Positions 1,737 to 42,994 of a stretch of DNA of 47,457 nt are shown here, piece after piece (within the stretch, counting starts at the first letter, position 1; each line of letters starts with the position of its first letter). Below the pieces are notes generated by a model, which did no database searches, had not been told where the DNA came from, and saw nothing but the letters and a program-made list of their open reading frames with translations. The position numbers were made by a program, and so were the translations under genes. The stretch is from NCBI GenBank assembly GCA_020631955.1, contig JACKGL010000005.1, forward strand, positions 1-47,457. The letters run 5' to 3'. This stretch comes from Candidatus Nomurabacteria bacterium (lineage in GTDB: Bacteria; Patescibacteriota; Minisyncoccia; Phycocordibacterales; UBA9973).

Positions 1737-2996
1737 TTACAATTTCATTGGATTTATCATATTTTCTATTTCCATAAGGCGATTATATTTACAAACCCTT
1801 TCTCCTCGAACGGGTGAGCCTGCTTTTATAAAATCACAAGCTAAACCTACCGACAAATCAGCGATAAATGTATCTGTGGTCTCGCCTGATCTGTGAGATA
1901 CAAAAGGTGCCCAGCCGTATTCTTTGGTCATAGACACTGCTTTTATAGTCTCTGTTAGGGTTCCTATCTGATTGAGTTTTATTAATACAGAGTTTATAGA
2001 TTTTTTTTCGAACGCAGTCTTGATCCTATCAACATTTGTAACAGTAAGGTCGTCCCCTACTATTTTTACTTTATCTCCTAAAACATCTACAAATTCAGAA
2101 AACCCCTGCCAATCATCTTCAGCCAAACCATCTTCAATAGATATAAGCTGGTGTTTTTTAAACAAGTCTTCATACCAACTAATAAGTTCGGAGCTAGTCA
2201 GATCTCTTTTGATACCATCGATATTTATTCGATACTTATCTTCTTCAAAAAATTCAGACGCTGCTGCATCTATACCTATCCGTACATCATCCAAAGAATA
2301 ACCAGCGTCAACAATAGCTTGTCTTATCAAATCAAAAGCTTCGTCATTTGATGAGAGTTTAGGTGCAAAACCACCTTCGTCACCGACACTTGTAGCATAA
2401 CCTTTCCCGACAAGTATCTTCTTAAGGGCAGAAACAACTTCCACTGCTACTTCTACTTTTTTCGTAAACGAATCAAATCCAACAGGTGCAACCATAAACT
2501 CTTGTATATCAAGACCACTATCAGCATGTCTTCCTCCGTTTAGTATGTTGAACATTGGTTGTGGTAGCATAACTTCCTTGGTGCCAGAAATAAGAGAGAC
2601 ATATTCATAAAGCTCAACATTTTGTTTGTTAGCACAAGCTCTGGCAAAAGCTAAAGATACTCCCAAAATAGCGTTGGCACCTAGCCGAGACTTGTTATTT
2701 GTACCATCTAGATCTATCAAAGCTCTATCTAAGGATTCTTGATCAAAACTTTTATCTTTAAGGTGGTTATTTATCTCAGTATTTACATTTAAAACAGCTT
2801 TGGTAACTCCAAGCCCTCCGTATCTCTTTGTGTCATGATCACGCAACTCAATAGCTTCATGAACACCTGTACTTGCCCCAGAAGGAACAGAGGCTTTCCC
2901 GTAAACCTGACCATCTACTACACACTCTACTTCAACAGTAGGGTTGCCTCGTGAATCTAAAATTTCTCTTGCTTTAAGCGATAGTATTTTTACCAT
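1737..2996 (-). CDS. eno: Enolase (phosphopyruvate hydratase)
   Basis: 419-aa ORF: MVKILSLKAREILDSRGNPTVEVE..., SHRSGETTDTFIADLSV, KAGSPVRGERVCKYNRL. These are classic enolase stretches at full length. Confidence 0.95.
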   Translation of the reverse strand: MVKILSLKAREILDSRGNPTVEVECVVDGQVYGKASVPSGASTGVHEAIELRDHDTKRYGGLGVTKAVLNVNTEINNHLKDKSFDQESLDRALIDLDGTNNKSRLGANAILGVSLAFARACANKQNVELYEYVSLISGTKEVMLPQPMFNILNGGRHADSGLDIQEFMVAPVGFDSFTKKVEVAVEVVSALKKILVGKGYATSVGDEGGFAPKLSSNDEAFDLIRQAIVDAGYSLDDVRIGIDAAASEFFEEDKYRINIDGIKRDLTSSELISWYEDLFKKHQLISIEDGLAEDDWQGFSEFVDVLGDKVKIVGDDLTVTNVDRIKTAFEKKSINSVLIKLNQIGTLTETIKAVSMTKEYGWAPFVSHRSGETTDTFIADLSVGLACDFIKAGSPVRGERVCKYNRLMEIENMINPMKL

Positions 2997-2999
2997 ATA

Positions 3000-3815
3000 T
3001 TAATTAATCCTTTTTAAAGTATTAAAATGCACTTCACCTTGCAGGTGTTTTTCAGCTTCAGTAATAATTTTTTCCATCACTTTAACTGCTTCGGCAGGAT
3101 ACATACCTTTAGCGGTTTCTTCAGAAAGCATGACAGCGTCAGCGCCTTCTAAAATAGCAGTAGTTACATCTGTGACTTCAGCCCTCGTAGGACTAGGATT
3201 ATCCACCATAGAGAGAAGCATCTGTGTAGCCACGATAACAGGTTTACCAAAACCTTTAGCTTTCTTTATTAAACTGTCTTGAACAAATGGAACTTGTTCT
3301 ATTTTTATATTATCACCCAAGTCACCTCTTGCTATCATCACAGCGTCGGCAGAATCAATAATCTCATCAATATTATTTAAAGCTTCCTTTCGTTCGATCT
3401 TTGCAATAATTTTCTGCTTACCTTTATGTCTATCTATGACCTCTCTACATTTATGTATATCCTCCTTACTCGATACAAAAGATACTGCTATATAATCAAC
3501 TTCATATTCCACAGCAAACTTTATATATTCCTCATCTTTTTCAGTGATAGCAGATAGAGCGTCATGGTTAAAAGTATGTCCGTCTTCATGCTGAATACGA
3601 GGTCCAGGCAAATCCACAATAACAGGTACTTGTCTTTTGAATTCTGTTTCTATGTGTCTTATGAGTTTTATTTGATTGGAGTGCAATTCAAAATCTCCCC
3701 AAGAAAAATTGAGCCTAGCCGCACTGGACTGGTATGAAGTTATATCCTTGAGCACATCAGGGTTTGAAGATGCTGGTCCAAGTGTAAATACAATTTGTGC
3801 TTTAGAAAAAATCAT
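3000..3815 (-). CDS. Pyruvate kinase-like protein, A (TIM-barrel) domain only; no B lid and no C-terminal domain
   Basis: 271 aa. PK motifs LNFSWG (NFSHG-like), DLPGPRIQ, IAKIE, MIARGDLG, ATQMLLSM, PTRAEVTDV, MLSEETA are collinear. DLPGPRIQ is followed after ~15 aa by the ITEKDEEYI segment, and the ORF stops right after the barrel. Confidence 0.6.
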   Translation of the reverse strand: MIFSKAQIVFTLGPASSNPDVLKDITSYQSSAARLNFSWGDFELHSNQIKLIRHIETEFKRQVPVIVDLPGPRIQHEDGHTFNHDALSAITEKDEEYIKFAVEYEVDYIAVSFVSSKEDIHKCREVIDRHKGKQKIIAKIERKEALNNIDEIIDSADAVMIARGDLGDNIKIEQVPFVQDSLIKKAKGFGKPVIVATQMLLSMVDNPSPTRAEVTDVTTAILEGADAVMLSEETAKGMYPAEAVKVMEKIITEAEKHLQGEVHFNTLKRIN

Positions 3816-6004: not shown

Positions 6005-6034
6005 ACCCCCTTCTTGTTCGACTCCAACCCAAAA

Positions 6035-6069
6035 ACACAAAACACCTACTAATAAAAGTAGGTGTTTTA
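6035..6069. terminator. Bidirectional intrinsic terminator just 3' of initiator tRNA-Met
   Basis: acacctac-taataaaa-gtaggtgt, flanked by an A-run and a T-run on both strands. Confidence 0.6.
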
Positions 6070-6076
6070 TGTAATG

Positions 6077-6147
6077 TTGCGGGTGGTGGAATCGAACCAC
6101 CTTCTTCAGGTTATGAGCCTGACGAGACACCATTTCTCTAACCCGCG
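6077..6147 (-). tRNA. Initiator tRNA-fMet (anticodon CAU)
   Basis: CGCGGGT TA GAGA AATGGTG TCTC G TCAGG CTCATAA CCTGA AGAA GGTGG TTCGATT CCACC ACCCGCA A. The C1:A72 mismatch and A11:U24 pair are bacterial initiator hallmarks. Only two G-C pairs close the anticodon stem. Confidence 0.8.
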
Positions 6148-31230: not shown

Positions 31231-31320
31231 GGAGGCGTGGCTGAGTGGTCGAAAGTACCTCACTGCTAACGAGGCGAGCTGTAAAAGGCTCCGAGGGTTC
31301 GAATCCCTCCGCCTCCGCCA
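31231..31320 (+). tRNA. tRNA-Ser (anticodon GCU), long variable arm, encoded CCA
   Basis: GGAGGCG TG GCTGAGTGGTCGAAAGT .. CTGCTAA .. variable arm GAGCTGTAAAAGGCTC .. GAGGG TTCGAAT CCCTC CGCCTCC G CCA. Confidence 0.9.
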
Positions 31321-31482
31321 AGTCGAGCTAGCTCGAGATGCCTTAAAAAATAAGAGTTTTCTCTTATTGAAAATCGCAACCCGTCTAGGACGCAAGAACC
31401 AATGAAAAACATAAAACCACCTCACAAAGGTGTTTTTATGTTTGTTGTAGTAAAAAGCAACAAATTATGCTATACTTCTCCT

Positions 31483-31683
31483 ATGAAAGACGATGCGAAA
31501 AAGTTAGGTGAGAACCTAAAGAAGATCAGAACAGAAAAGGATATTACTCAGGTCGAGATTGCAAAAAAGCTTGATGTAAACCGATCCTTTGTGAGCAACA
31601 TTGAGAACGGAAAAACTAATCCTACTCTTTCAACCATTACCAACCTAGCCAGAAGCTCATGGCCGGCCAGTTCTTTTCTTTGA
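31483..31683 (+). CDS. XRE-family HTH protein, C-terminally aberrant (possible truncation)
   Basis: LGENLKKIRTEKDITQVEIAKKLDVNRSFVSNIENGKTNPTLSTITNLA is a canonical Cro/C1 HTH. The tail SSWPASSFL overlaps the convergent gene by 47 nt. TATACT lies 6 nt before the ATG at 31483. Confidence 0.6.
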   Translation: MKDDAKKLGENLKKIRTEKDITQVEIAKKLDVNRSFVSNIENGKTNPTLSTITNLARSSWPASSFL

Positions 31684-31894
31684 TGAGGTTGAGCAATTGC
31701 ACTTCGGTCATATCGTTCACAAACGCCTCACCCTCAACCAAGGCTTCGTCCATGGCGGTCAGAAACTCTGGGTCATTCTGTCGCCACCGATAAGCACTCA
31801 TGCGAGAGATTCCAACCTTGTCACACGCGATTCTTACTACGGGAACTTTCCGAAGGTTCTCCAAGAACTCCTCCTGCTTTTTATTTTTCTTCAT
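31637..31894 (-). CDS. Phage-type HTH protein (terminase small-subunit N-terminal-like)
   Basis: 85 aa. ACDKVGISRMSAYRWRQNDPEFLTAMDEAL is the HTH found at the N-terminus of small terminase/TerS-like proteins. Its start overlaps the methylase stop by 14 nt. Confidence 0.45.
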   Translation of the reverse strand: MKKNKKQEEFLENLRKVPVVRIACDKVGISRMSAYRWRQNDPEFLTAMDEALVEGEAFVNDMTEVQLLNLIKEKNWPAMSFWLGW

Positions 31895-33191
31895 AGTGTT
31901 CGATGACTGCCTTCAGTCCCGTTAGTTTCTCAAAGCGTTTGATTGCCAAGTCACAAAAGACTGGCTCGAGTTCGACCGCGTATACTCGACGCTTCAGCAT
32001 TTCTCCTGCAATGAGCGTACTTGCAGACCCAGAGAACGAATCAAGAATTATGTCGTCAGGCTTGGTACAGCGGCGTATTGCTTTCTCGTGGAGCGTCGGC
32101 GGCTTGCTTGTGGCGTGTTCATACTCCCTGGAAGAAAGTCGCTTTGCTGTCCAGATTTCAATAAAGTCATCCACTTGGGCAATAAGATCATTGCCGGTGG
32201 TAAACTCTTTGTTCATCACCTCATTGAGATCCTTAATGGATTCCGCAAGGTAGGGTCTGCCTCGAGTTCCGTATACCGCAGGTTCGTATGCCTTGTTGCA
32301 ATATACTTTTGGCACAGGGTTCTGAGAATTCTTCAACCACAAGCATACTCGCTTATTGGTAATGCCAATCGAGCGGTACACCTCTTGAATCAGTCCGATG
32401 TAGATTTGGTCGCAGTAGTAGAAAACATGGGTGTCTGGATTTGCTACGGCAAGCGCGCTGGTGAGACTGTCCTTAATGAACTTCTTGTACTCGTCATAAG
32501 TGCGAGTATCGTTCACATTTCCTCCGTAACTTTGCTTGCCGCCAATACCGCCGTCATAGTTGATAGAAATATTGTAAACAGGGTCCGAATAGATCATCGA
32601 TACCTTTTCATTGCCGACCAGTCGCTTGAGAACATTCGGATCAGTTGAGTCTCCACAGATAAGGCGGTGTCTGCCGAGGGTGATAATGTCACCCAGTTTT
32701 GTAATAGGCTTCTTTATCTGTTTTAACTCCTTTTCTATATTGAAGTCGTCGTCTTTGGTTTCCAGTTCTTTGTCCCAGAACTTCGCCAAATCTACTTGGT
32801 CGAATCCAACGTCAAGAAGCATGTCGAAATCGAATGCTTTCAATTTATCCATGTCCCAATCTCCGCCAACTGCGTTGCTGGTTATAAGGTATTGGTCGTA
32901 CTCCTTTTGGGTGAGTTTACGATTCGGTACCCGCACTTCTATTTCTTCATTGCCACGCCCGAGTATTTGCAATGCTCGGATTCTTTGGTGTCCTGCGATT
33001 ATCTTTCCGTCCGTGTCTATTGCAGGAATTTCAACCAAGTTGAATCTGGTAAGACTTTTCTTAAGGTCGTTCATCTGTTTGTCGCTGATTGAACGAGGGT
33101 TCTTTGCATAGGGTAAAAGAGCGTCTACGACACGCTTTTCCGTATGCCAAATTAGTTTCTTTGACATAGTTATATAAGGCAGTTTTTCCAT
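31881..33191 (-). CDS. ParB-like nuclease domain fused to an N4/N6 DNA methyltransferase
   Basis: 436 aa. ParB-N box (IIAGHQRIRAL), then methylase motif IV variant SDPVYN and motif I ILDSFSGSASTLIAGE. No restriction partner is visible, which is the phage/plasmid orphan-methylase architecture. Confidence 0.8.
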   Translation of the reverse strand: MEKLPYITMSKKLIWHTEKRVVDALLPYAKNPRSISDKQMNDLKKSLTRFNLVEIPAIDTDGKIIAGHQRIRALQILGRGNEEIEVRVPNRKLTQKEYDQYLITSNAVGGDWDMDKLKAFDFDMLLDVGFDQVDLAKFWDKELETKDDDFNIEKELKQIKKPITKLGDIITLGRHRLICGDSTDPNVLKRLVGNEKVSMIYSDPVYNISINYDGGIGGKQSYGGNVNDTRTYDEYKKFIKDSLTSALAVANPDTHVFYYCDQIYIGLIQEVYRSIGITNKRVCLWLKNSQNPVPKVYCNKAYEPAVYGTRGRPYLAESIKDLNEVMNKEFTTGNDLIAQVDDFIEIWTAKRLSSREYEHATSKPPTLHEKAIRRCTKPDDIILDSFSGSASTLIAGEMLKRRVYAVELEPVFCDLAIKRFEKLTGLKAVIEHYEEK

Positions 33192-33436
33192 ACGAAAAAA
33201 CCACTAGTTAAATGAATAAAATTCCTTTTCTAGTTCCTTATACCAATGTGAGTTCTGCTCCTCGTTGGTTGTGGAAGCCTTGGGCGAATGCGCAAGGACT
33301 CGAACCGTACGACTTACTTGGATTAAAAAGTTCTGCTCTTTAATCGGTAGCGATCCAATCCGACCGGTTTTTCCGATCAGAAACGGTTGTTATCTAATAT
33401 TATACATCATATTCTTATTTTTGGTAAAATAGGGTT

Positions 33437-34432
33437 ATGAACGGTCGAGAGGATTTGAACAAAATGAAACAAGAGGCTCAAGACGCTGAAAATGGGAAGA
33501 GGTACTTCGAGGCGTCTATTTTATATAAGAATCTCCTTGCGGAAGCGAATAAGCAAAATAATTCAGAACTCATTGCAGAAGCAAAGAATAAAATGGTCGA
33601 AATGAATGGACTTGCAGAGGGGGAATATAAAGAGATTACGGGAGAGACGGAAGTTTCTCGTGAGGATATAGAAAAGCAGATCAAATATATTCTTGGAGAC
33701 AGTGAGAAACTTGATGATGTCCTGTACAGGATAGGTCATCATCCTCACATGTATCCAAAGAAAAAAGAGATAGAGGATACTACAGTTGTTCCTATATTTC
33801 GGGCACTAGCTTCAAATCACATAACATCAAAGGATAATCATGCATTGGGTGGAAATGACCAAAAATACATTTCATATATAGAAAACTATGGAATGCATCA
33901 AAGTGTAATTATGCAATTATGCATGGGTCGCTTGTTCAACGAACTCTACACCAAGTATGGACTGAACTCGGACACACTTACGGCCTATTTTGAGAGTAAG
34001 AAAGTCTTTTCTCAAGAGAATTTATTCTTTATTAAGTCAGGTTTGAAAAACTTCTTTGAGGAGGATTATTGCGCTGCAATACATGTTCTTGTGCCGAGAT
34101 TTGAGAGATGCTTCGTAGAGCTGTCAAAAGCACTTGGTATTAATACGGTTTCCTTAAAAAGAAACAAGAAAGGTGTTGATGACGTTGTTACTTCCGATAT
34201 AACCCTTTCTATTGATCTTCTTCGTAAGAAAGAATTTACCGACAAGTGGACTGAGGATTTTTGCGAGCATGTTATTTATGTGTTCTATGAGCGTCTTGGG
34301 TATGGACTTAGGCACAAAGTTGCCCATGGAACATTATCGTCTGGTGAAGCACATAAAAATGCGTGCGAACTGATCATCTACTTCTATCTAGTATTGGCGG
34401 CAAGAATAAAGATGAAAAATACTGACAAATAA
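33437..34432 (+). CDS. DUF4209-like protein with a C-terminal R-x4-H (HEPN-like) motif
   Basis: 331 aa. HVLVPRFERCFVELSKALG followed ~70 aa later by GYGLRHKVAHGTLS. TAAAAT lies 6 nt before the ATG. Confidence 0.45.
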   Translation: MNGREDLNKMKQEAQDAENGKRYFEASILYKNLLAEANKQNNSELIAEAKNKMVEMNGLAEGEYKEITGETEVSREDIEKQIKYILGDSEKLDDVLYRIGHHPHMYPKKKEIEDTTVVPIFRALASNHITSKDNHALGGNDQKYISYIENYGMHQSVIMQLCMGRLFNELYTKYGLNSDTLTAYFESKKVFSQENLFFIKSGLKNFFEEDYCAAIHVLVPRFERCFVELSKALGINTVSLKRNKKGVDDVVTSDITLSIDLLRKKEFTDKWTEDFCEHVIYVFYERLGYGLRHKVAHGTLSSGEAHKNACELIIYFYLVLAARIKMKNTDK

Positions 34433-34439
34433 TGTTTTT

Positions 34440-34469
34440 AAAAAAGTTACAGAGAATTGTAACTTTTTT
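34440..34469 (+). terminator. Intrinsic terminator of cassette 1
   Basis: aaaaaa-gttac-agagaatt-gtaac-tttttt. Confidence 0.7.
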
Positions 34470-34509
34470 AAAAACATGAGAAATGTGTCACTTTTGTAAC
34501 TTTTTGGGT

Positions 34510-34602
34510 GCTCGAGACCCTTCAGAAATATTTTCTAAAAAATGCTAAAATAACCTTACTGGGCTTGACCTCAAAAGGTTCTAACTCGAGATTGCCCGCC
34601 CG
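34510..34602 (+). repeat. Inter-cassette repeat, copy 1 (~93 nt)
   Basis: GCTCGAGACCC...ATGCTAAAATAACCTTACTGGGCTTGACCTCAAAAGGTTCTAACTCGAGATTGCCCGCCCG. Collinear similarity to copies 2 and 3. Confidence 0.6.
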
Positions 34603-34665
34603 AAATACTTGTTATCGGCAGACCCGACTGCCTAGGACTGTGGGACAACCCGAAAACCTATAGAT

Positions 34666-35217
34666 ATGAAATACGTATATCATTCATCGAAAACTCAAGG
34701 ATTGAAAAATATTGAACCACGAATAAGTACTCATGGAAATTCTTGGGTGTATGCGATGGAAAAACCTGAATATTGTTTGATGTTTCTCGGTAATCACGGA
34801 GACATTATCAATCAGACTGGTTTTACAGGTGGTATACCTTATATTGCCGAACGGTTTGAAGGAGCGCTTGAATATGCTTACAAAGATAAAACAGGCTCCA
34901 TTTATATCCTTGAAGGGCTTGATTTCAAGGCCGGGATGACAACCTTTACCAGAGAATTTGTTTGCGATCATTCTTGTGAGGTGGTTGAAGAACAAAAGAT
35001 TGAAGATACTCTAAAAGAGATCTTACGACTTGAATCGGAAGGAAAAATAAAAATATATAGATATCCTAATTTACCTTCCTGGATGCCGGCGGACAAAAGC
35101 GATTTGATCGAGAAAGTTATCGAATGGGCGAAGAAACCTGGGAGCACTATTTTGGAAGCGGTGAAAGAATTTCATCCTGACATTTTAAATAAAGTTACCC
35201 AGAAATTGAAAAATTAG
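34666..35217 (+). CDS. Hypothetical protein, possible ADP-ribosyltransferase-fold enzyme (weak motif evidence only)
   Basis: 183 aa. N-terminal VYHSS (H6), SWVYAM (Y29) and TREFVC (E97) could form an H-Y-E triad. The start resembles the LYHGT NAD-lobe motif of KptA/Tpt1-type enzymes. Confidence 0.3.
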   Translation: MKYVYHSSKTQGLKNIEPRISTHGNSWVYAMEKPEYCLMFLGNHGDIINQTGFTGGIPYIAERFEGALEYAYKDKTGSIYILEGLDFKAGMTTFTREFVCDHSCEVVEEQKIEDTLKEILRLESEGKIKIYRYPNLPSWMPADKSDLIEKVIEWAKKPGSTILEAVKEFHPDILNKVTQKLKN

Positions 35218-35311
35218 ACCCCGACCCACAAACCTTATTTTAACTTCTAGAACTCTGCTAAAATACTCTTATGGGGCCTCATTGACTTGGTACTGAACCC
35301 GAGTGGCCCGC
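35218..35311 (+). repeat. Inter-cassette repeat, copy 2 (~94 nt)
   Basis: ACCCCGACCC...CTGCTAAAATACTCTTATGGGGCCTCATTGACTTGGTACTGAACCCGAGTGGCCCGC, starting right after the stop codon of cassette 2. Confidence 0.6.
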
Positions 35312-35401
35312 ATCTTAGATGCTAGCACGAGAAGCGTTTAGAAAACGCTTTGTCAAATTTGCATAGAGTAAAATAAGCGGTTCTTCCTATATAATAAGAA
35401 T

Positions 35402-35857
35402 ATGAGCAGATACGTTATTGTCTCTTTTTTAGAGAAAGCTACTCTAGGAATTACGTTTTCTAAATCGGAATGGCTCTTACATCTGACGATTCTCCGTCCA
35501 TTTTTTTCAGACAATGAAGACGGTTATTTAATAGGGATACTGAAAGATTCTCTGTTAGAAAAACAAAAGGTTACTTCGACCGGAAAGGTAAAAGAAATGT
35601 TTGGTCCGAATAAAGACGTAGCAGTTACGGAATTAGAACATAATACTAGGATTCAAGACTTGCACGACAGTATTGAAAGTGCGTTTAAACCATTCATACG
35701 TTTTGAATCCGAACAATACCCCACCTACAGACCACATGTTACAAATCAAGGAAGTAGAGGAATTGTGGTTGGGGAAGAAGTCGTCATTAACTCTGTTTCT
35801 TTGGTAAAAATCGACAATGATTCTCGCCAAGTGTTAGCTACTGTTGCATTAATATAG
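35402..35857 (+). CDS. 2H phosphoesterase superfamily protein (LigT / cyclic phosphodiesterase-like)
   Basis: 151 aa with two H-x-T-x motifs ~84 aa apart: LHLTIL and RPHVTN. TATAAT lies 6 nt before the ATG. Confidence 0.65.
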   Translation: MSRYVIVSFLEKATLGITFSKSEWLLHLTILRPFFSDNEDGYLIGILKDSLLEKQKVTSTGKVKEMFGPNKDVAVTELEHNTRIQDLHDSIESAFKPFIRFESEQYPTYRPHVTNQGSRGIVVGEEVVINSVSLVKIDNDSRQVLATVALI

Positions 35858-35862
35858 AGACC

Positions 35863-35951
35863 GCTCGAGACACATCAATCTAAAGTCTGGAATAATACTA
35901 AATAGCCTTACAGAGCTTGTCCGAGAAAAGTTCCAACACGACGCTCTCCGC
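35863..35951 (+). repeat. Inter-cassette repeat, copy 3 (~89 nt), at the island/backbone junction
   Basis: GCTCGAGACAC...TACTAAATAGCCTTACAGAGCTTGTCCGAGAAAAGTTCCAACACGACGCTCTCCGC, starting 6 nt after the stop codon of cassette 3. Confidence 0.55.
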
Positions 35952-36011
35952 AGATTGAAAAACTTCTATTTTTATAAGATAATATAATTATTAGTATTTA
36001 TCTTTAAAATC

Positions 36012-36350
36012 ATGGAAGAAGTATCACAAACAACACCAAAACAAAACCCTATGGCAGGTTTTGTCGAATTTATACGTACACAAGGAGTTGTCGGACTGGC
36101 GGTCGGATTTATCTTAGGAGGCGCAGTATCAAAACTAGTCTCTGCTTTAGTAGAAAATATTATCAATCCACTAGTAGGTCTAGCGCTAGGAAAAGTAGAT
36201 CTCGCAGACAAAGCTGTCATGCTCGGTGATGCTTCTTTAAACTACGGTGCTTTTGTATCTACAATGATAGATTTCATCATCATAGCTGCAGTCGTATATT
36301 TCGGTGTAAAAGGTCTTGGTTTAGACAAACTTGATAAACCAAAAGCATAA
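36012..36350 (+). CDS. mscL: Large-conductance mechanosensitive channel
   Basis: 112 aa. GFVEFIRTQGVVGLAVGFILGGAVSKLVSALVENIINPLVG. Confidence 0.9.
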   Translation: MEEVSQTTPKQNPMAGFVEFIRTQGVVGLAVGFILGGAVSKLVSALVENIINPLVGLALGKVDLADKAVMLGDASLNYGAFVSTMIDFIIIAAVVYFGVKGLGLDKLDKPKA

Positions 36351-37689: not shown

Positions 37690-38196
37690 CTACATTTGCA
37701 CGAACTCGTCCGGTTCGTATAGGTTGGCATAACCGATTTTTTCATTGAGGTATTTACCTTTTATCAGGACACCCTCAACCTTTTCGTCAGAGACAACAAC
37801 ATACATCCTTGATGTCTCGGTTGCTGTGAGTACATTATATTTGTCCAGCTCTGCAGTCCATGTTGCCACATCCTCATCAGTCTGGCCATACTCTTTGATG
37901 ATTGCATCGATGTAGTATTCCACCTGCATAGAGCGACCGGCGTAATCGGTGAAATAGATGGTCACGGTGGCCACATCTCTTTCTGAAGGCCATCCTTCGA
38001 ATTCTATCTTTTCAGCTTTCATGGGCGTGGCCGTCACCGAGTCAACAGGAAACCAAGCACTCTCAGACTGTGATAAGGCCGAAGGTGCTGAATCCGTATT
38101 TTCTGCCTGACGGATTTTTTTTCCTGACTTGCTTTCGCAAGAAGTCATCATAATCGCAGCTGCTGCAATCATGATGAAACAAATGTTTTTCTTCAT
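37690..38196 (-). CDS. Hypothetical lipoprotein
   Basis: MKKNICFIMIAAAAIMMTSC lipobox. GC-richer than the backbone. Confidence 0.6.
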   Translation of the reverse strand: MKKNICFIMIAAAAIMMTSCESKSGKKIRQAENTDSAPSALSQSESAWFPVDSVTATPMKAEKIEFEGWPSERDVATVTIYFTDYAGRSMQVEYYIDAIIKEYGQTDEDVATWTAELDKYNVLTATETSRMYVVVSDEKVEGVLIKGKYLNEKIGYANLYEPDEFVQM

Positions 38197-38216: not shown

Positions 38217-38543
38217 TTAAAGAAATAGTTTCAATCCTACCGCAACTTCTGTGCAAAGAAAGAAAATTGCAAGTATGAACCCGGGTATCACTACCCATTT
38301 ACTTACTTTCTTGCTATCACCCAATATCGCAATAAAAGCGATAAAAGTGAATATGACAGCAACTGCAATTGCAAACCTAGCATCATCGACACTACCACCA
38401 TCTCCTGATATAAACACAGAAGAAAGTGATAGATCGGTAGCCATAGGATCAATGTCCGGCACAATCATAAAAATGATCAATGCAGACAACATCAAGCAAA
38501 AGCTTGATAATACGGCGATAAATACACTGTAACCTTTTTTCAT
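38217..38543 (-). CDS. Hypothetical membrane protein (3-4 TM)
   Basis: 108 aa, hydrophobic throughout. 20-nt gap to the downstream lipoprotein gene. Confidence 0.5.
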   Translation of the reverse strand: MKKGYSVFIAVLSSFCLMLSALIIFMIVPDIDPMATDLSLSSVFISGDGGSVDDARFAIAVAVIFTFIAFIAILGDSKKVSKWVVIPGFILAIFFLCTEVAVGLKLFL

Positions 38544-38638: not shown

Positions 38639-39445
38639 TTACTTTGCCTCGTCGTCGGGTTTTTCCCCTTCTTCCTTCGGAAGACGAGTACCGAGTTCGA
38701 TCTCGGTGTTTGCCCCATTGGCATCAGTGTGACTGATAGATCCTTCACGATTTTTTAATTCGTTTACGATCCCCATCAGGCGTTCCAATCCAGAAACCTG
38801 GTTCTGCTGAACCGGAGGCTCTTCACGTACCACTTCGTGGTGGTGATGAATGTCTCCGTGGAAGTGATAGATGTCCCCATGGTGATGAATCACCATTGGA
38901 TTATCATCCCTACCTTCAGTCTCTGAATGACGTGAAGTCCTGGAACTGGAAAGATTATCGGCAAGCAAACGCCGAATTACCCATATTGCTAACGCAACCA
39001 AGAGTAGCCCAACCACAACCCAGAACAGGAATTTTATCCAATCAGGAATACCTGAACTGGAGCCTCCTCCTGTTACCGGAGTAATAACATTACGGTCGCG
39101 GTCACTGGATGAACCTGTATTCAGCTGGTCCTTATAGAACCAACCTTTCTGGTTCATAGTGTCGCCAGGGATGGCGATACTTTCAGTGACGGTGCTGGTG
39201 TCGTTGTTGACACCCAGCAGAGCCGGGTTCTTCAAGCGACGACCATTTTTTACCTGACAATTACTGTCCACGGTGGCTGCATAGCGTGTAGCTGTGTCCA
39301 GGACGGTGCTTACCACCTGGTCCTGGTCAGTGAATTGAAACTGAGGGGCTTCGCCGGAGATATTTTGCCTGCTATTACAAGCGGAGAGTCCTATCATCAC
39401 AAATGATGCGATGATGGTAAAAATAAACAATGTACGTTTTTTCAT
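38639..39445 (-). CDS. Hypothetical lipoprotein with an internal TM helix and a His-rich cytoplasmic tail
   Basis: MKKRTLFIFTIIASFVMIGLSAC lipobox from the ATG at 39445 (track start 39481). TM FLFWVVVGLLLVALAIWVI. His cluster VIHHHGDIYHFHGDIHHHHE. Confidence 0.55.
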   Translation of the reverse strand: MKKRTLFIFTIIASFVMIGLSACNSRQNISGEAPQFQFTDQDQVVSTVLDTATRYAATVDSNCQVKNGRRLKNPALLGVNNDTSTVTESIAIPGDTMNQKGWFYKDQLNTGSSSDRDRNVITPVTGGGSSSGIPDWIKFLFWVVVGLLLVALAIWVIRRLLADNLSSSRTSRHSETEGRDDNPMVIHHHGDIYHFHGDIHHHHEVVREEPPVQQNQVSGLERLMGIVNELKNREGSISHTDANGANTEIELGTRLPKEEGEKPDDEAK

Positions 39446-39548
39446 ATTCGGAATTGTTTTTTGTTTCTTATATTGTATCACATTTTGTATACTTTGTCAA
39501 ATATAATACCCTTATATACCAAGCTCTTTTGGGGTAAAATAGGTATAC

Positions 39549-42912: not shown

Positions 42913-42986
42913 CCGTCCTTAGCTCAGTTGGTTAGAGCACAGAGCTTATACCTCTGGGGTCCTTGGTTCGAATCCAAGAGGACGGA
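42913..42986 (+). tRNA. tRNA-Ile (anticodon UAU)
   Basis: CCGTCCT TA GCTC AGTTGGTTA GAGC A CAGAG CTTATAC CTCTG GGGTC CTTGG TTCGAAT CCAAG AGGACGG A. 74 nt, perfect stems, C1-G72. Confidence 0.85.
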
Positions 42987-42994
42987 CAATGAAA

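Follow-up and report, generated by a model that had tools for sequence, protein, structure and literature searches.

A putative ADP-ribosyltransferase-like gene and an adjacent 2H phosphoesterase gene are probably separate single-gene cassettes in a tRNA-Ser-anchored array of a Candidatus Nomurabacteria genome

A 47,457-nt stretch of a Candidatus Nomurabacteria bacterium genome (contig JACKGL010000005.1 of assembly GCA_020631955.1; hereafter the window) contains two adjacent genes on the same strand that encode proteins of 183 and 151 amino acids (aa), exactly as given in a preliminary description of this DNA. The 151-aa protein is a 2H phosphoesterase, and the 183-aa protein, a member of a large unannotated family, likely has an ADP-ribosyltransferase (ART) type fold. 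The preliminary description regarded the pair as belonging to a system-like block. Our analysis points elsewhere: the two genes are probably separately acquired single-gene cassettes, assorting independently within a variable array anchored at a tRNA-Ser gene of this candidate phyla radiation (CPR) genome, and probably form no functional pair. A repeat of about 100 nt follows each gene, and this repeat marks arrays of single-gene cassettes at tRNA genes in ultra-small CPR genomes.

A tempting but unsupported reading of two neighbouring genes as a system is thereby removed; the 183-aa family and the architecture of the arrays are the parts that merit follow-up. The gain and loss of accessory genes in CPR genomes are poorly understood, and the repeat provides a practical handle on their flexible gene pool in metagenomes. 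In its widest form our interpretation would be an undescribed CPR gene-capture system, consisting of integrase-less single-gene cassettes, pseudo-tRNA-Ser elements of ~100 nt and co-oriented arrays at tRNA genes, together with a widespread, minimal Arr-like ART family modifying small molecules, possibly antibiotics. Taken as a whole, we consider this a speculative possibility.

Separate histories of the two genes

Homology between the window and other contigs runs one gene at a time. Positions 34653-35311 match L001 5988-6646 at 79.5%, a stretch that comprises the 183-aa open reading frame (ORF) and the repeat after it and ends before the 2H gene. Positions 35399-35874 match L013 1523-1998 at 74.8%, covering the 2H ORF and the first 16 nt of the next repeat (copy C, Table 1). 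Between the window and L001 the 183-family proteins share 85% identity, whereas the ParB-methyltransferases encoded a few kilobases upstream at the two loci share just 39%. The 184-nt spacer between the two genes holds an extended -10-like sequence of its own, TGCTAAAAT.

Neither family accompanies the other elsewhere. We examined ten other contexts of the 183-aa family (L001, L002/3, L004-6, L007/8, L009/10, L014, L015, L016, L017/18 and L019) and three contexts of 2H relatives (L011/12, L013 and L113). A 2H gene lies beside the 183-family gene in none of the ten, and a 183-family gene beside the 2H relative in none of the three; profiles of both families match at one locus only in the window, and the Pfam annotations of the neighbours show no 2H family. 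A generic regular-expression scan for paired HxT motifs among the neighbours was discarded as too strict, having missed the RPHVTN motif of the window's own protein. The size of the sample, just 10 + 3 contexts, counts against a firm verdict, as does the screening of L014 and L015 with a narrow subfamily profile only. The preliminary description was to be given up if the 183-aa protein proved not to be ART-like and the two families never co-occurred elsewhere: co-occurrence is absent from the contexts surveyed, whereas an ART-like structure stays plausible in the light of the model below.

A toxin and antidote pair, in which a DarT-like ART toxin would be neutralised by the 2H enzyme, had been thought plausible and now appears highly improbable. 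The island does hold an HEPN-like candidate defence gene next to the pair, and one relative of the 183-aa protein (P0194) bears the name 'DarT domain-containing protein' in UniRef. The Pfam DarT family, however, does not match the 183-aa protein, the spacer with its separate repeat element is no tight operon, and the fusions of the 183-aa family to GNAT acetyltransferases and kinases (see below) are atypical of toxin–antitoxin toxins. None of the ten other contexts shows a conserved neighbour or a macrodomain, and this lack of a conserved partner argues against a toxin that needs an antidote.

A repeat element partly resembling the 3′ end of tRNA-Ser

Three related segments of ~110 nt (copies A, B and C) flank the two genes, and each ORF is followed by one of them from its stop codon. 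Their alignment scores are 41 for A against C (null 17 ± 2.5) and 28 for A against B (null 16 ± 2.3). A profile was built from the three copies, and the results of a pattern scan of metagenomes were then filtered with it; about half of the 91 pattern matches failed the full-length profile and were ignored. The resulting repeat family comprises 47 copies (43 distinct) in about 40 contigs. One of the two L001 copies lies upstream of the 183-family gene and the other immediately after it, while the L013 copy immediately follows, and the L113 copy immediately precedes, a 2H gene. Every copy is co-oriented with the adjacent ORFs, and the projected start of the element falls between -3 and +6 nt from the upstream stop codon in 18 of 31 copies. 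A scan of viral contigs returned no copies, only chance partial matches.

The consensus reads GC.CGAGA..CGTC, an AT-rich stretch, TAAAATAaCCTTAC.GGGCTTG, and then GGTtCTAaC.CGAg...GCCCGCa. Its 5′ and 3′ boxes co-vary as direct repeats, in the combinations GCTCGAGA/CTCGAGA, GCACGAGA/CACGAGA and GACCCACA/ACCCACA. The same box is found within 10-20 nt after real tRNA-Ser genes in the window (31327-31342) and at L013, L086, L059, L026 and L027. Copy C resembles the T-arm and acceptor end of the tRNA-Ser(TGA) of L013 over 27 nt (z=5.1). At L113 the element ends in ...CACCGCA, joined to GACAGAGGTAGCTCGAGAAGCGTTTAAAATATG; at L013 the real tRNA-Ser(TGA) ends in ...CTCTCCGCA and is followed by the same 31 nt as at L113 and the same 2H gene. 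Given these identical junctions, the element stands in place of the 3′ end of a tRNA-Ser. A further observation concerns L027, where a normal tRNA-Ser(GCT) is followed 1 kb later by an ARAGORN-predicted tRNA-Ser (1134-1223) whose anticodon, ACT, is unusual. This second tRNA coincides exactly with a cassette boundary, the place expected for an element, and may represent a transitional form between true tRNA-Ser and the repeat.

Several results temper the relationship with tRNA. Only some copies resemble tRNA-Ser, and then only over the 3′ ~27 nt; a significant match was obtained solely for copy C with the tRNA-Ser(TGA) of L013; comparison with the body of the window's own tRNA-Ser(GCT) gave borderline matches only, to the downstream flank of the tRNA; and Rfam searches of the region (E ≤ 1 and E ≤ 10) returned nothing beyond the true tRNA, the tRNA model missing the element. 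RNAalifold, applied to 6 and then to 32 copies, yielded a weak, G-U-rich 5-bp stem and no stable or covarying fold (alifold -2.3 kcal/mol; minimum free energy z -0.35), and the element is therefore not attC-like. We rejected it both as a structured RNA and as an attC site; an outer stem that had seemed 'compensatory' is out of register in the alignment. Two other candidates were dropped: an element of L015 at the syntenic position of the L009 tRNA-Ser, because the two loci become collinear only where the 183-family gene begins, and HIT as a shared third cassette, the HIT proteins of L001 and L013 being just 21% identical.

Cassette arrays at tRNA genes

Units consisting of an ORF plus an element occur two or three to an array at L049, L091, L086, L027, L060 and L024. 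At L013 and 11 metagenome loci the first element is preceded, at a distance of 0.5-1.7 kb, by a tRNA gene. The anchoring gene is a tRNA-Ser, with four different anticodons, at L013 and eight of the metagenome loci, and a tRNA for Trp, Gln or Arg at the other three. In the window the tRNA-Ser is 3.2 kb upstream of the first element, with a larger insert between them. A methyltransferase cassette is common to L027 and L049, where its neighbours are unrelated and the homology ends 13 nt into the element. The cargo sampled includes a PF00144 beta-lactamase/penicillin-binding-protein-like protein, Fic, ThsA-Macro, S66, S51 and M48 peptidases, two S-adenosylmethionine methyltransferases, RidA, a low-molecular-weight phosphatase, a polyprenyl synthase, an AIRS-like protein, an IS481 transposase and six proteins without a Pfam match.

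The window contains a tRNA-anchored island with boundary repeats that partly resemble a tRNA 3′ end. Cassette 1 would span about 34653-35344 and carry the 183-aa gene, and cassette 2 about 35399-35967 with the 2H gene; the repeats would be att-type junctions left by site-specific insertion at a tRNA-linked site. The recombination mechanism and the att-type nature of the repeats are what we infer. Against them stands the finding that no recombinase or integrase was seen in the window island or beside the arrays (~33 loci), although the contigs are mostly short and a distant integrase is possible. No account of such arrays in CPR genomes was found in the literature searched.

The CPR loci L009 and L015 provide an observation of a related kind. 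Their collinear stretch (78-91% DNA identity) begins 10 nt ahead of the start codon of the 183-family gene and continues through that gene, TruB, a methyltransferase and so on, while the genes upstream are unrelated. As collinearity begins at the gene, its upstream edge would be a hotspot of recombination or insertion even where no element adjoins it.

Among described systems, the nearest concept for these arrays appears to be serial integration at tRNA attachment (att) sites. The tycheposons of Prochlorococcus integrate in this way and leave partial tRNAs inside islands (10.1101/2020.12.28.424599). Islands so built resemble the window array in that variable cargo lies directly downstream of a tRNA gene (10.1101/2020.12.28.424599) and in that tandem units are split by repeats like a tRNA 3′ end, older units being pushed distally. 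The units described here differ in being single genes of 0.5-1.2 kb that lack an integrase or replication module, and their repeat differs in its length of ~100 nt, its internal, co-varying direct boxes and its merely partial similarity to tRNA. Integron cassettes (an ORF with attC) are alike in another respect, each being a promoter-poor single ORF with a recombination-type repeat of ~100 nt immediately after it, in co-oriented arrays with miscellaneous or unknown cargo. The window element, unlike attC, has no imperfect palindrome or hairpin and its boxes are direct, not inverted, repeats; moreover, no IntI-like gene was seen with the arrays, and their anchor is a tRNA gene and not attI. An integron cassette array was rejected because there is no attC-type hairpin, the boxes are direct and no recombinase lies beside the arrays.

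Could the ~100-nt repeat simply be a vertically inherited intergenic module of promoter and terminator between ordinary chromosomal neighbours? The extended -10-like TGCTAAAAT within the element and its constant co-orientation with genes would fit, as would the missing recombinase and hairpin. Several observations stand against such a module: the same ORF-plus-element unit between unrelated neighbours on different contigs with homology ending at the element, 5′ and 3′ boxes that co-vary as direct repeats, an element replacing a real tRNA-Ser at an otherwise identical junction, arrays downstream of tRNA genes, and a cassette protein 85% identical where its neighbour is 39% identical. We regard this explanation as unlikely, and prefer that of separately acquired cassettes.

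The 151-aa protein is a 2H phosphoesterase of cellular type

The 151-aa protein matches Pfam PF13563 (2_5_RNA_ligase2) with E=1.7e-6 and 28.6 bits, above the cutoff of 27, and carries the motifs LHLTIL (H27-x-T29) and RPHVTN (H112-x-T114). A word-based search found six other clusters, and every full-length one carries PF13563. In the alignment H27-x-T29 is kept in 6/6 full-length homologues and R-P-H112-V-T114 is invariant; both catalytic histidines, whose joint absence had been named as the test of the assignment, are retained. The AlphaFold2 model (predicted local distance difference test, pLDDT, 82.7; predicted template modelling score, pTM, 0.82) was compared with the PDB using Foldseek, and the first 44 matches are exclusively 2H enzymes (probability 1.00, template modelling (TM) score up to 0.69). 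The best is the Arabidopsis cyclic phosphodiesterase (CPDase) 1jh6, which acts on ADP-ribose 1'',2''-cyclic phosphate (Appr>p), and others are Bacillus subtilis YjcG (2d4g, TM 0.69), Escherichia coli LigT (5ldm), rotavirus VP3, AKAP18 and Usb1. The protein is, far beyond chance, a 2H phosphoesterase, as the preliminary description had recognised.

As the first 44 structural matches are all 2H enzymes and Acb1 (7t27) ranks only 45th (E=0.015, TM 0.36-0.38, against 0.56-0.69 for cellular 2H enzymes), the protein is, judged by its predicted structure, of the cellular LigT/YjcG/CPDase type and not Acb1-like. LigT, YjcG and the plant CPDase share its pair of HxT motifs, its membership of 2_5_RNA_ligase2 and its 2H fold (TM 0.6-0.69); the window protein differs from them in being shorter (151 vs ~170-185 aa) and in an identity of 12-18%. 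Its HxT motifs would serve in the hydrolysis of a 2',3'-cyclic (or 1'',2''-cyclic) phosphate. The 2H relatives lie on chromosomal CPR contigs, and at L011 a 45%-identical relative follows, after 8 nt, genes for a phosphoribosyl pyrophosphate (PRPP) synthase and a phosphoribosyltransferase, in an apparent operon. This neighbourhood suggests a role in nucleotide or RNA-end salvage.

An Acb1-type anti-defence cargo, which would degrade cyclic-oligonucleotide immune signals, had also been proposed for this gene. The size of the protein is close to that of Acb1, the fold is 2H, and a mobile cassette would be a natural setting. Besides the low structural rank of Acb1, the PRPP synthase operon of a relative and the absence of element copies from the viral contigs speak against it, and the protein gave just weak 'RNA ligase' matches in PHROGs and no relevant match in PADLOC. 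We consider an Acb1-type function most improbable.

The 183-aa family is large, unannotated and related to DUF6886

The 183-aa protein matches nothing above noise in Pfam, NCBIfam, PADLOC or PHROGs and no PDB sequence. A word-based search recovered 24 unannotated clusters, and an exhaustive profile search 1,166 representative clusters at E ≤ 0.001, 476 of them at E ≤ 1e-10. Members are mostly ~185-190 aa long, and many come from Clostridia and Lachnospiraceae. The nearest relative in reference genomes, from a Candidatus Saccharibacteria metagenome-assembled genome, is 70% identical, in keeping with a CPR origin, and a scan with the single protein found 2 genome loci. Among long members, 9 of 42 match DUF6886 (PF21820) below threshold, with hits that span the whole domain; in P0127 the sub-threshold match covers residues 5-123. 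No paper mentioning DUF6886 was found in the literature searched. By sequence similarity the family is large, unannotated and DUF6886-related. Weak matches to CpcN and Macro were dismissed as chance.

Two features of individual members may be recorded here. Five proteins (P0112, P0118, P0119, P0127 and P0159) each contain two matched stretches of the domain, and in P0076 and P0114 (512-551 aa) the domain is C-terminal, after ~320 residues without a Pfam match. The 183-family gene of L002 has its true start 3 nt after the end of a tRNA-Trp (6011-6082). The database proteins P0006, P0019 and P0021 carry N-terminal extensions (e.g. ...RAISLVVE.RSPK...) that are read-through translations of this tRNA-Trp and therefore artefacts of gene calling.

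An ART-type fold is likely

The protein begins MKYVYHSS and contains SWVYAM and TREFVC, from which the preliminary description picked the H, Y and E of a possible ART triad. Across 77 diverse members these residues, H6, Y29 and E97, rank among the best-conserved positions: conservation is 90% or more at each of them, as it is at S8, H23, A30, D46, Y80, L82 and Y133, while E62 and F87 are invariant and R63, beside E62, is conserved too. The AlphaFold2 model (pLDDT 94.3, pTM 0.84) places H6 and Y29 within strands 3-8 and 26-31, respectively, and strand 97-100 starts with E97. The sole Foldseek matches in the PDB with a probability of 0.97 are structures of the rifampin ADP-ribosyltransferase Arr (2hw2 and 9iaf, E ~6e-3); Arr-2 and 2o0q, an ART-like DUF952 protein, rank lower. 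P0127 matches ART-PolyVal (PF18760) with E=4.7e-5 and 24.6 bits, below the cutoff of 31.2, over residues 2-45, the stretch of the family domain that itself carries the H and Y motifs. Triplets of the form HGS, YFA and ..E have been tabulated for PARP enzymes (PMC7955679), and the family motifs H[SG]S, VYA and ..E parallel them in shape. Among viral structures in BFVD lie the best matches of all to the model, unnamed giant-virus and phage proteins (E=3e-8, TM 0.53) headed by A0A5J6VI63 from a Megaviridae sample and including several Caudovirales proteins; viruses therefore have this fold as well.

Arr (Pfam Arr-ms; 2hw2, 9iaf and 9iba) and the 183-aa protein are both small and single-domain, and share an N-terminal YH[GS][ST]K, a subsequent strand containing Y and a later G.IY.[LV]E strand; relatives of the 183-aa protein further share with Arr a context of drug-modifying enzyme classes. 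The 183-aa family differs in an additional beta-hairpin/helix insert at residues ~46-75, which holds the invariant E62-R63, and in an extra C-terminal helical region of ~70 residues. The acidic residue is Asp in Arr and Glu in the 183-aa family. In the mechanism that we envisage, NAD+ would be bound by H6-x-S8 of strand 1 and Y29-A30 of strand 2, and E97 or the invariant E62 would act as the catalytic acid, within a minimal Arr-like fold.

The alternative is that the resemblance to Arr is superficial and the protein has some other fold and function, for example as a non-NAD enzyme or a binding protein. Several results lean this way. The TM-score to Arr is 0.32-0.42, below 0.5, with a root mean square deviation above 9 Å, and no PDB match reaches E ≤ 0.001. 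Profile methods fail to join the family to ARTs: HMMER profiles of the family matched no ART among PDB sequences, hhalign gave a probability of 0.7% against Arr-2/Arr-ms, and no Pfam family of the ART clan is above threshold in any member, the window protein matching none. The most conserved acidic residue, the invariant E62, is outside the classical triad. The matches of family members to DUF6886 and ART-PolyVal all remain below the Pfam gathering thresholds, the window protein itself matches neither these nor DarT, and the family lacks a DarG-like macrodomain partner. Nevertheless, four independent weak signals concur, namely the Foldseek ranking, the ART-PolyVal match, the name DarT and the placement of the H/Y/E motifs. 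The ART fold of the preliminary description is a reasonable lead, favoured by the nearest solved structure and the conserved residues and not by structural similarity or profile matches: the protein likely has a fold of ART type and a site like H-Y-E, although this is not demonstrated, and a non-ART protein is rather unlikely.

The 183-aa protein is not Tpt1-like, because no member matches PTS_2-RNA, no Tpt1 is among the top 50 PDB matches and the catalytic residues are wrong. The catalytic tetrad of Tpt1 is R-H-R-R, and the conserved residues here are of the H/Y/E type. This bears on the proposed NAD/RNA-end module, in which a Tpt1/KptA-like ART would produce ADP-ribose 1'',2''-cyclic phosphate for hydrolysis by the adjacent 2H enzyme. 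Some of its elements are present: the 2H model finds its best match in the Appr>p CPDase 1jh6; in CPR bacteria, relatives of the 183-aa gene have tRNA genes, MiaA and TruB in their vicinity; and some kinases fused to family members match tRNA_lig_kinase weakly (E=0.005). Beyond the failure of Tpt1, however, YjcG and LigT match the 2H model equally well as the CPDase, the two families co-occur, among the contexts surveyed, in the window only, and homology to other contigs breaks between the genes. The module seems very improbable.

A possible role in small-molecule modification

Members of the 183-aa family are fused to other enzymes. GNAT acetyltransferases are found N-terminal to the domain (P0052, P0097 and P0105), P-loop kinases of the shikimate-kinase (SKI)/AAA_18 type C-terminal to it (P0034, P0091, P0111 and P0143), and GrpB in P0033. 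Bifunctional fusions are typical of enzymes modifying antibiotics or other small molecules. Neighbours of the family gene in Clostridium sp. MSJ-4 encode a metallo-beta-lactamase-fold protein, an AAA_33 kinase, two GNATs, an S66 (MccF-like) peptidase, a TetR protein and a streptomycin adenylyltransferase fragment; on another clostridial contig the family gene follows one for an AadA-like nucleotidyltransferase. With classes of antibiotic- and small-molecule-modifying enzymes as fusion partners and neighbours and Arr as the nearest structure, we tentatively favour NAD-dependent modification as the likeliest activity, with a small molecule or xenobiotic as substrate. A caution is that substrate and activity are read solely from fusions and neighbours. 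Since the conserved residues, the best structural match, the fusions and the neighbours all lean in this direction, these small, unannotated proteins of Clostridia and CPR bacteria, which make up over 1,000 clusters and can be folded with confidence, might constitute an unrecognised class of drug- or metabolite-modifying enzymes.

Layout of the locus and neighbouring genes

The features of the array and its surroundings are collected in Table 1.

Table 1. Features of the array region of the window, and copies of the repeat element at other loci
Feature	Position	Strand	Basis or remark
tRNA-Ser(GCT), anchor of island and array	31231..31320	+	ARAGORN; Rfam tRNA model 55.3 bits
Box GCTAGCTCGAGATGCC, just 3′ of tRNA-Ser	31327..31342	+	sequence type of the 5′ box of the repeat element
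Larger insert of four genes between tRNA-Ser and 183-aa cassette	31402..34432	.	Pfam, PADLOC, PHROGs
HTH_3 repressor-like gene	31402-31683	+	within larger insert
Small helix-turn-helix (HTH) gene	31637-31894	-	within larger insert
ParB-N6/N4 DNA methyltransferase gene	31881-33191	-	within larger insert
DUF4209/PDC-S39 HEPN-like gene, 331 aa	33437-34432	+	PADLOC PDC-S39 E=6e-14
Perfect 20-bp inverted repeat, AT-rich, terminator-like, at end of DUF4209 gene	34432..34477	.	
Repeat element copy A, GCTCGAGA box type, contains TGCTAAAAT	34506..34620	+	nhmmer E=2.1e-26
183-aa protein ORF, DUF6886-related, putative Arr-like/ART-like family	34666..35217	+	
Repeat element copy B, GACCCACA box type, travels with 183-aa ORF	35223..35344	+	
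151-aa 2H phosphoesterase ORF, LigT/YjcG/CPDase type by its model	35402..35857	+	
Repeat element copy C	35859..35967	+	3′ part resembles T-arm and acceptor end of tRNA-Ser(TGA)
mscL, first gene past the array	36012..36350	+	Pfam MscL E=1.1e-22
Element copies elsewhere	L001 5476-5563, 6559-6655; L013 1983-2039; L015 545-636; L113 998-1088; ~40 metagenome loci (L022-L106)		

The upstream HEPN-like gene of the preliminary description is borne out as the DUF4209/PDC-S39 gene. Its product carries a C-terminal RHKVAH, an Rx4H motif of HEPN type, and matches just the C-terminal half of the ~600-aa PDC-S39 profiles. The block at 31402-33191, directly after the tRNA-Ser, is phage-like in composition, with a cI-type HTH protein, a small HTH protein and a ParB-N6/N4 methyltransferase fusion, and has no integrase; the small HTH protein shows weak similarity to terminase small subunits and transposase HTH domains. 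L001 also encodes a ParB-methyltransferase (2211-3512), at a similar distance upstream of its own 183-family cassette. Downstream of the array, two-component system genes accompany mscL (Pfam).

A tRNA-Ile with the uncommon anticodon TAT (UAU) is located at 42913-42987. In most bacteria AUA is decoded by a lysidine-modified CAU tRNA. An ORF of 280 aa (38639-39481, minus strand) has a lipoprotein-like signal at its N terminus, a transmembrane stretch in the middle and, in addition, the histidine-rich repeat HHHGDIYHFHGDIHHHH. Next to it are two other small secreted or membrane ORFs (37690-38196 and 38217-38543), and the GC content of this region is slightly above that of its surroundings.

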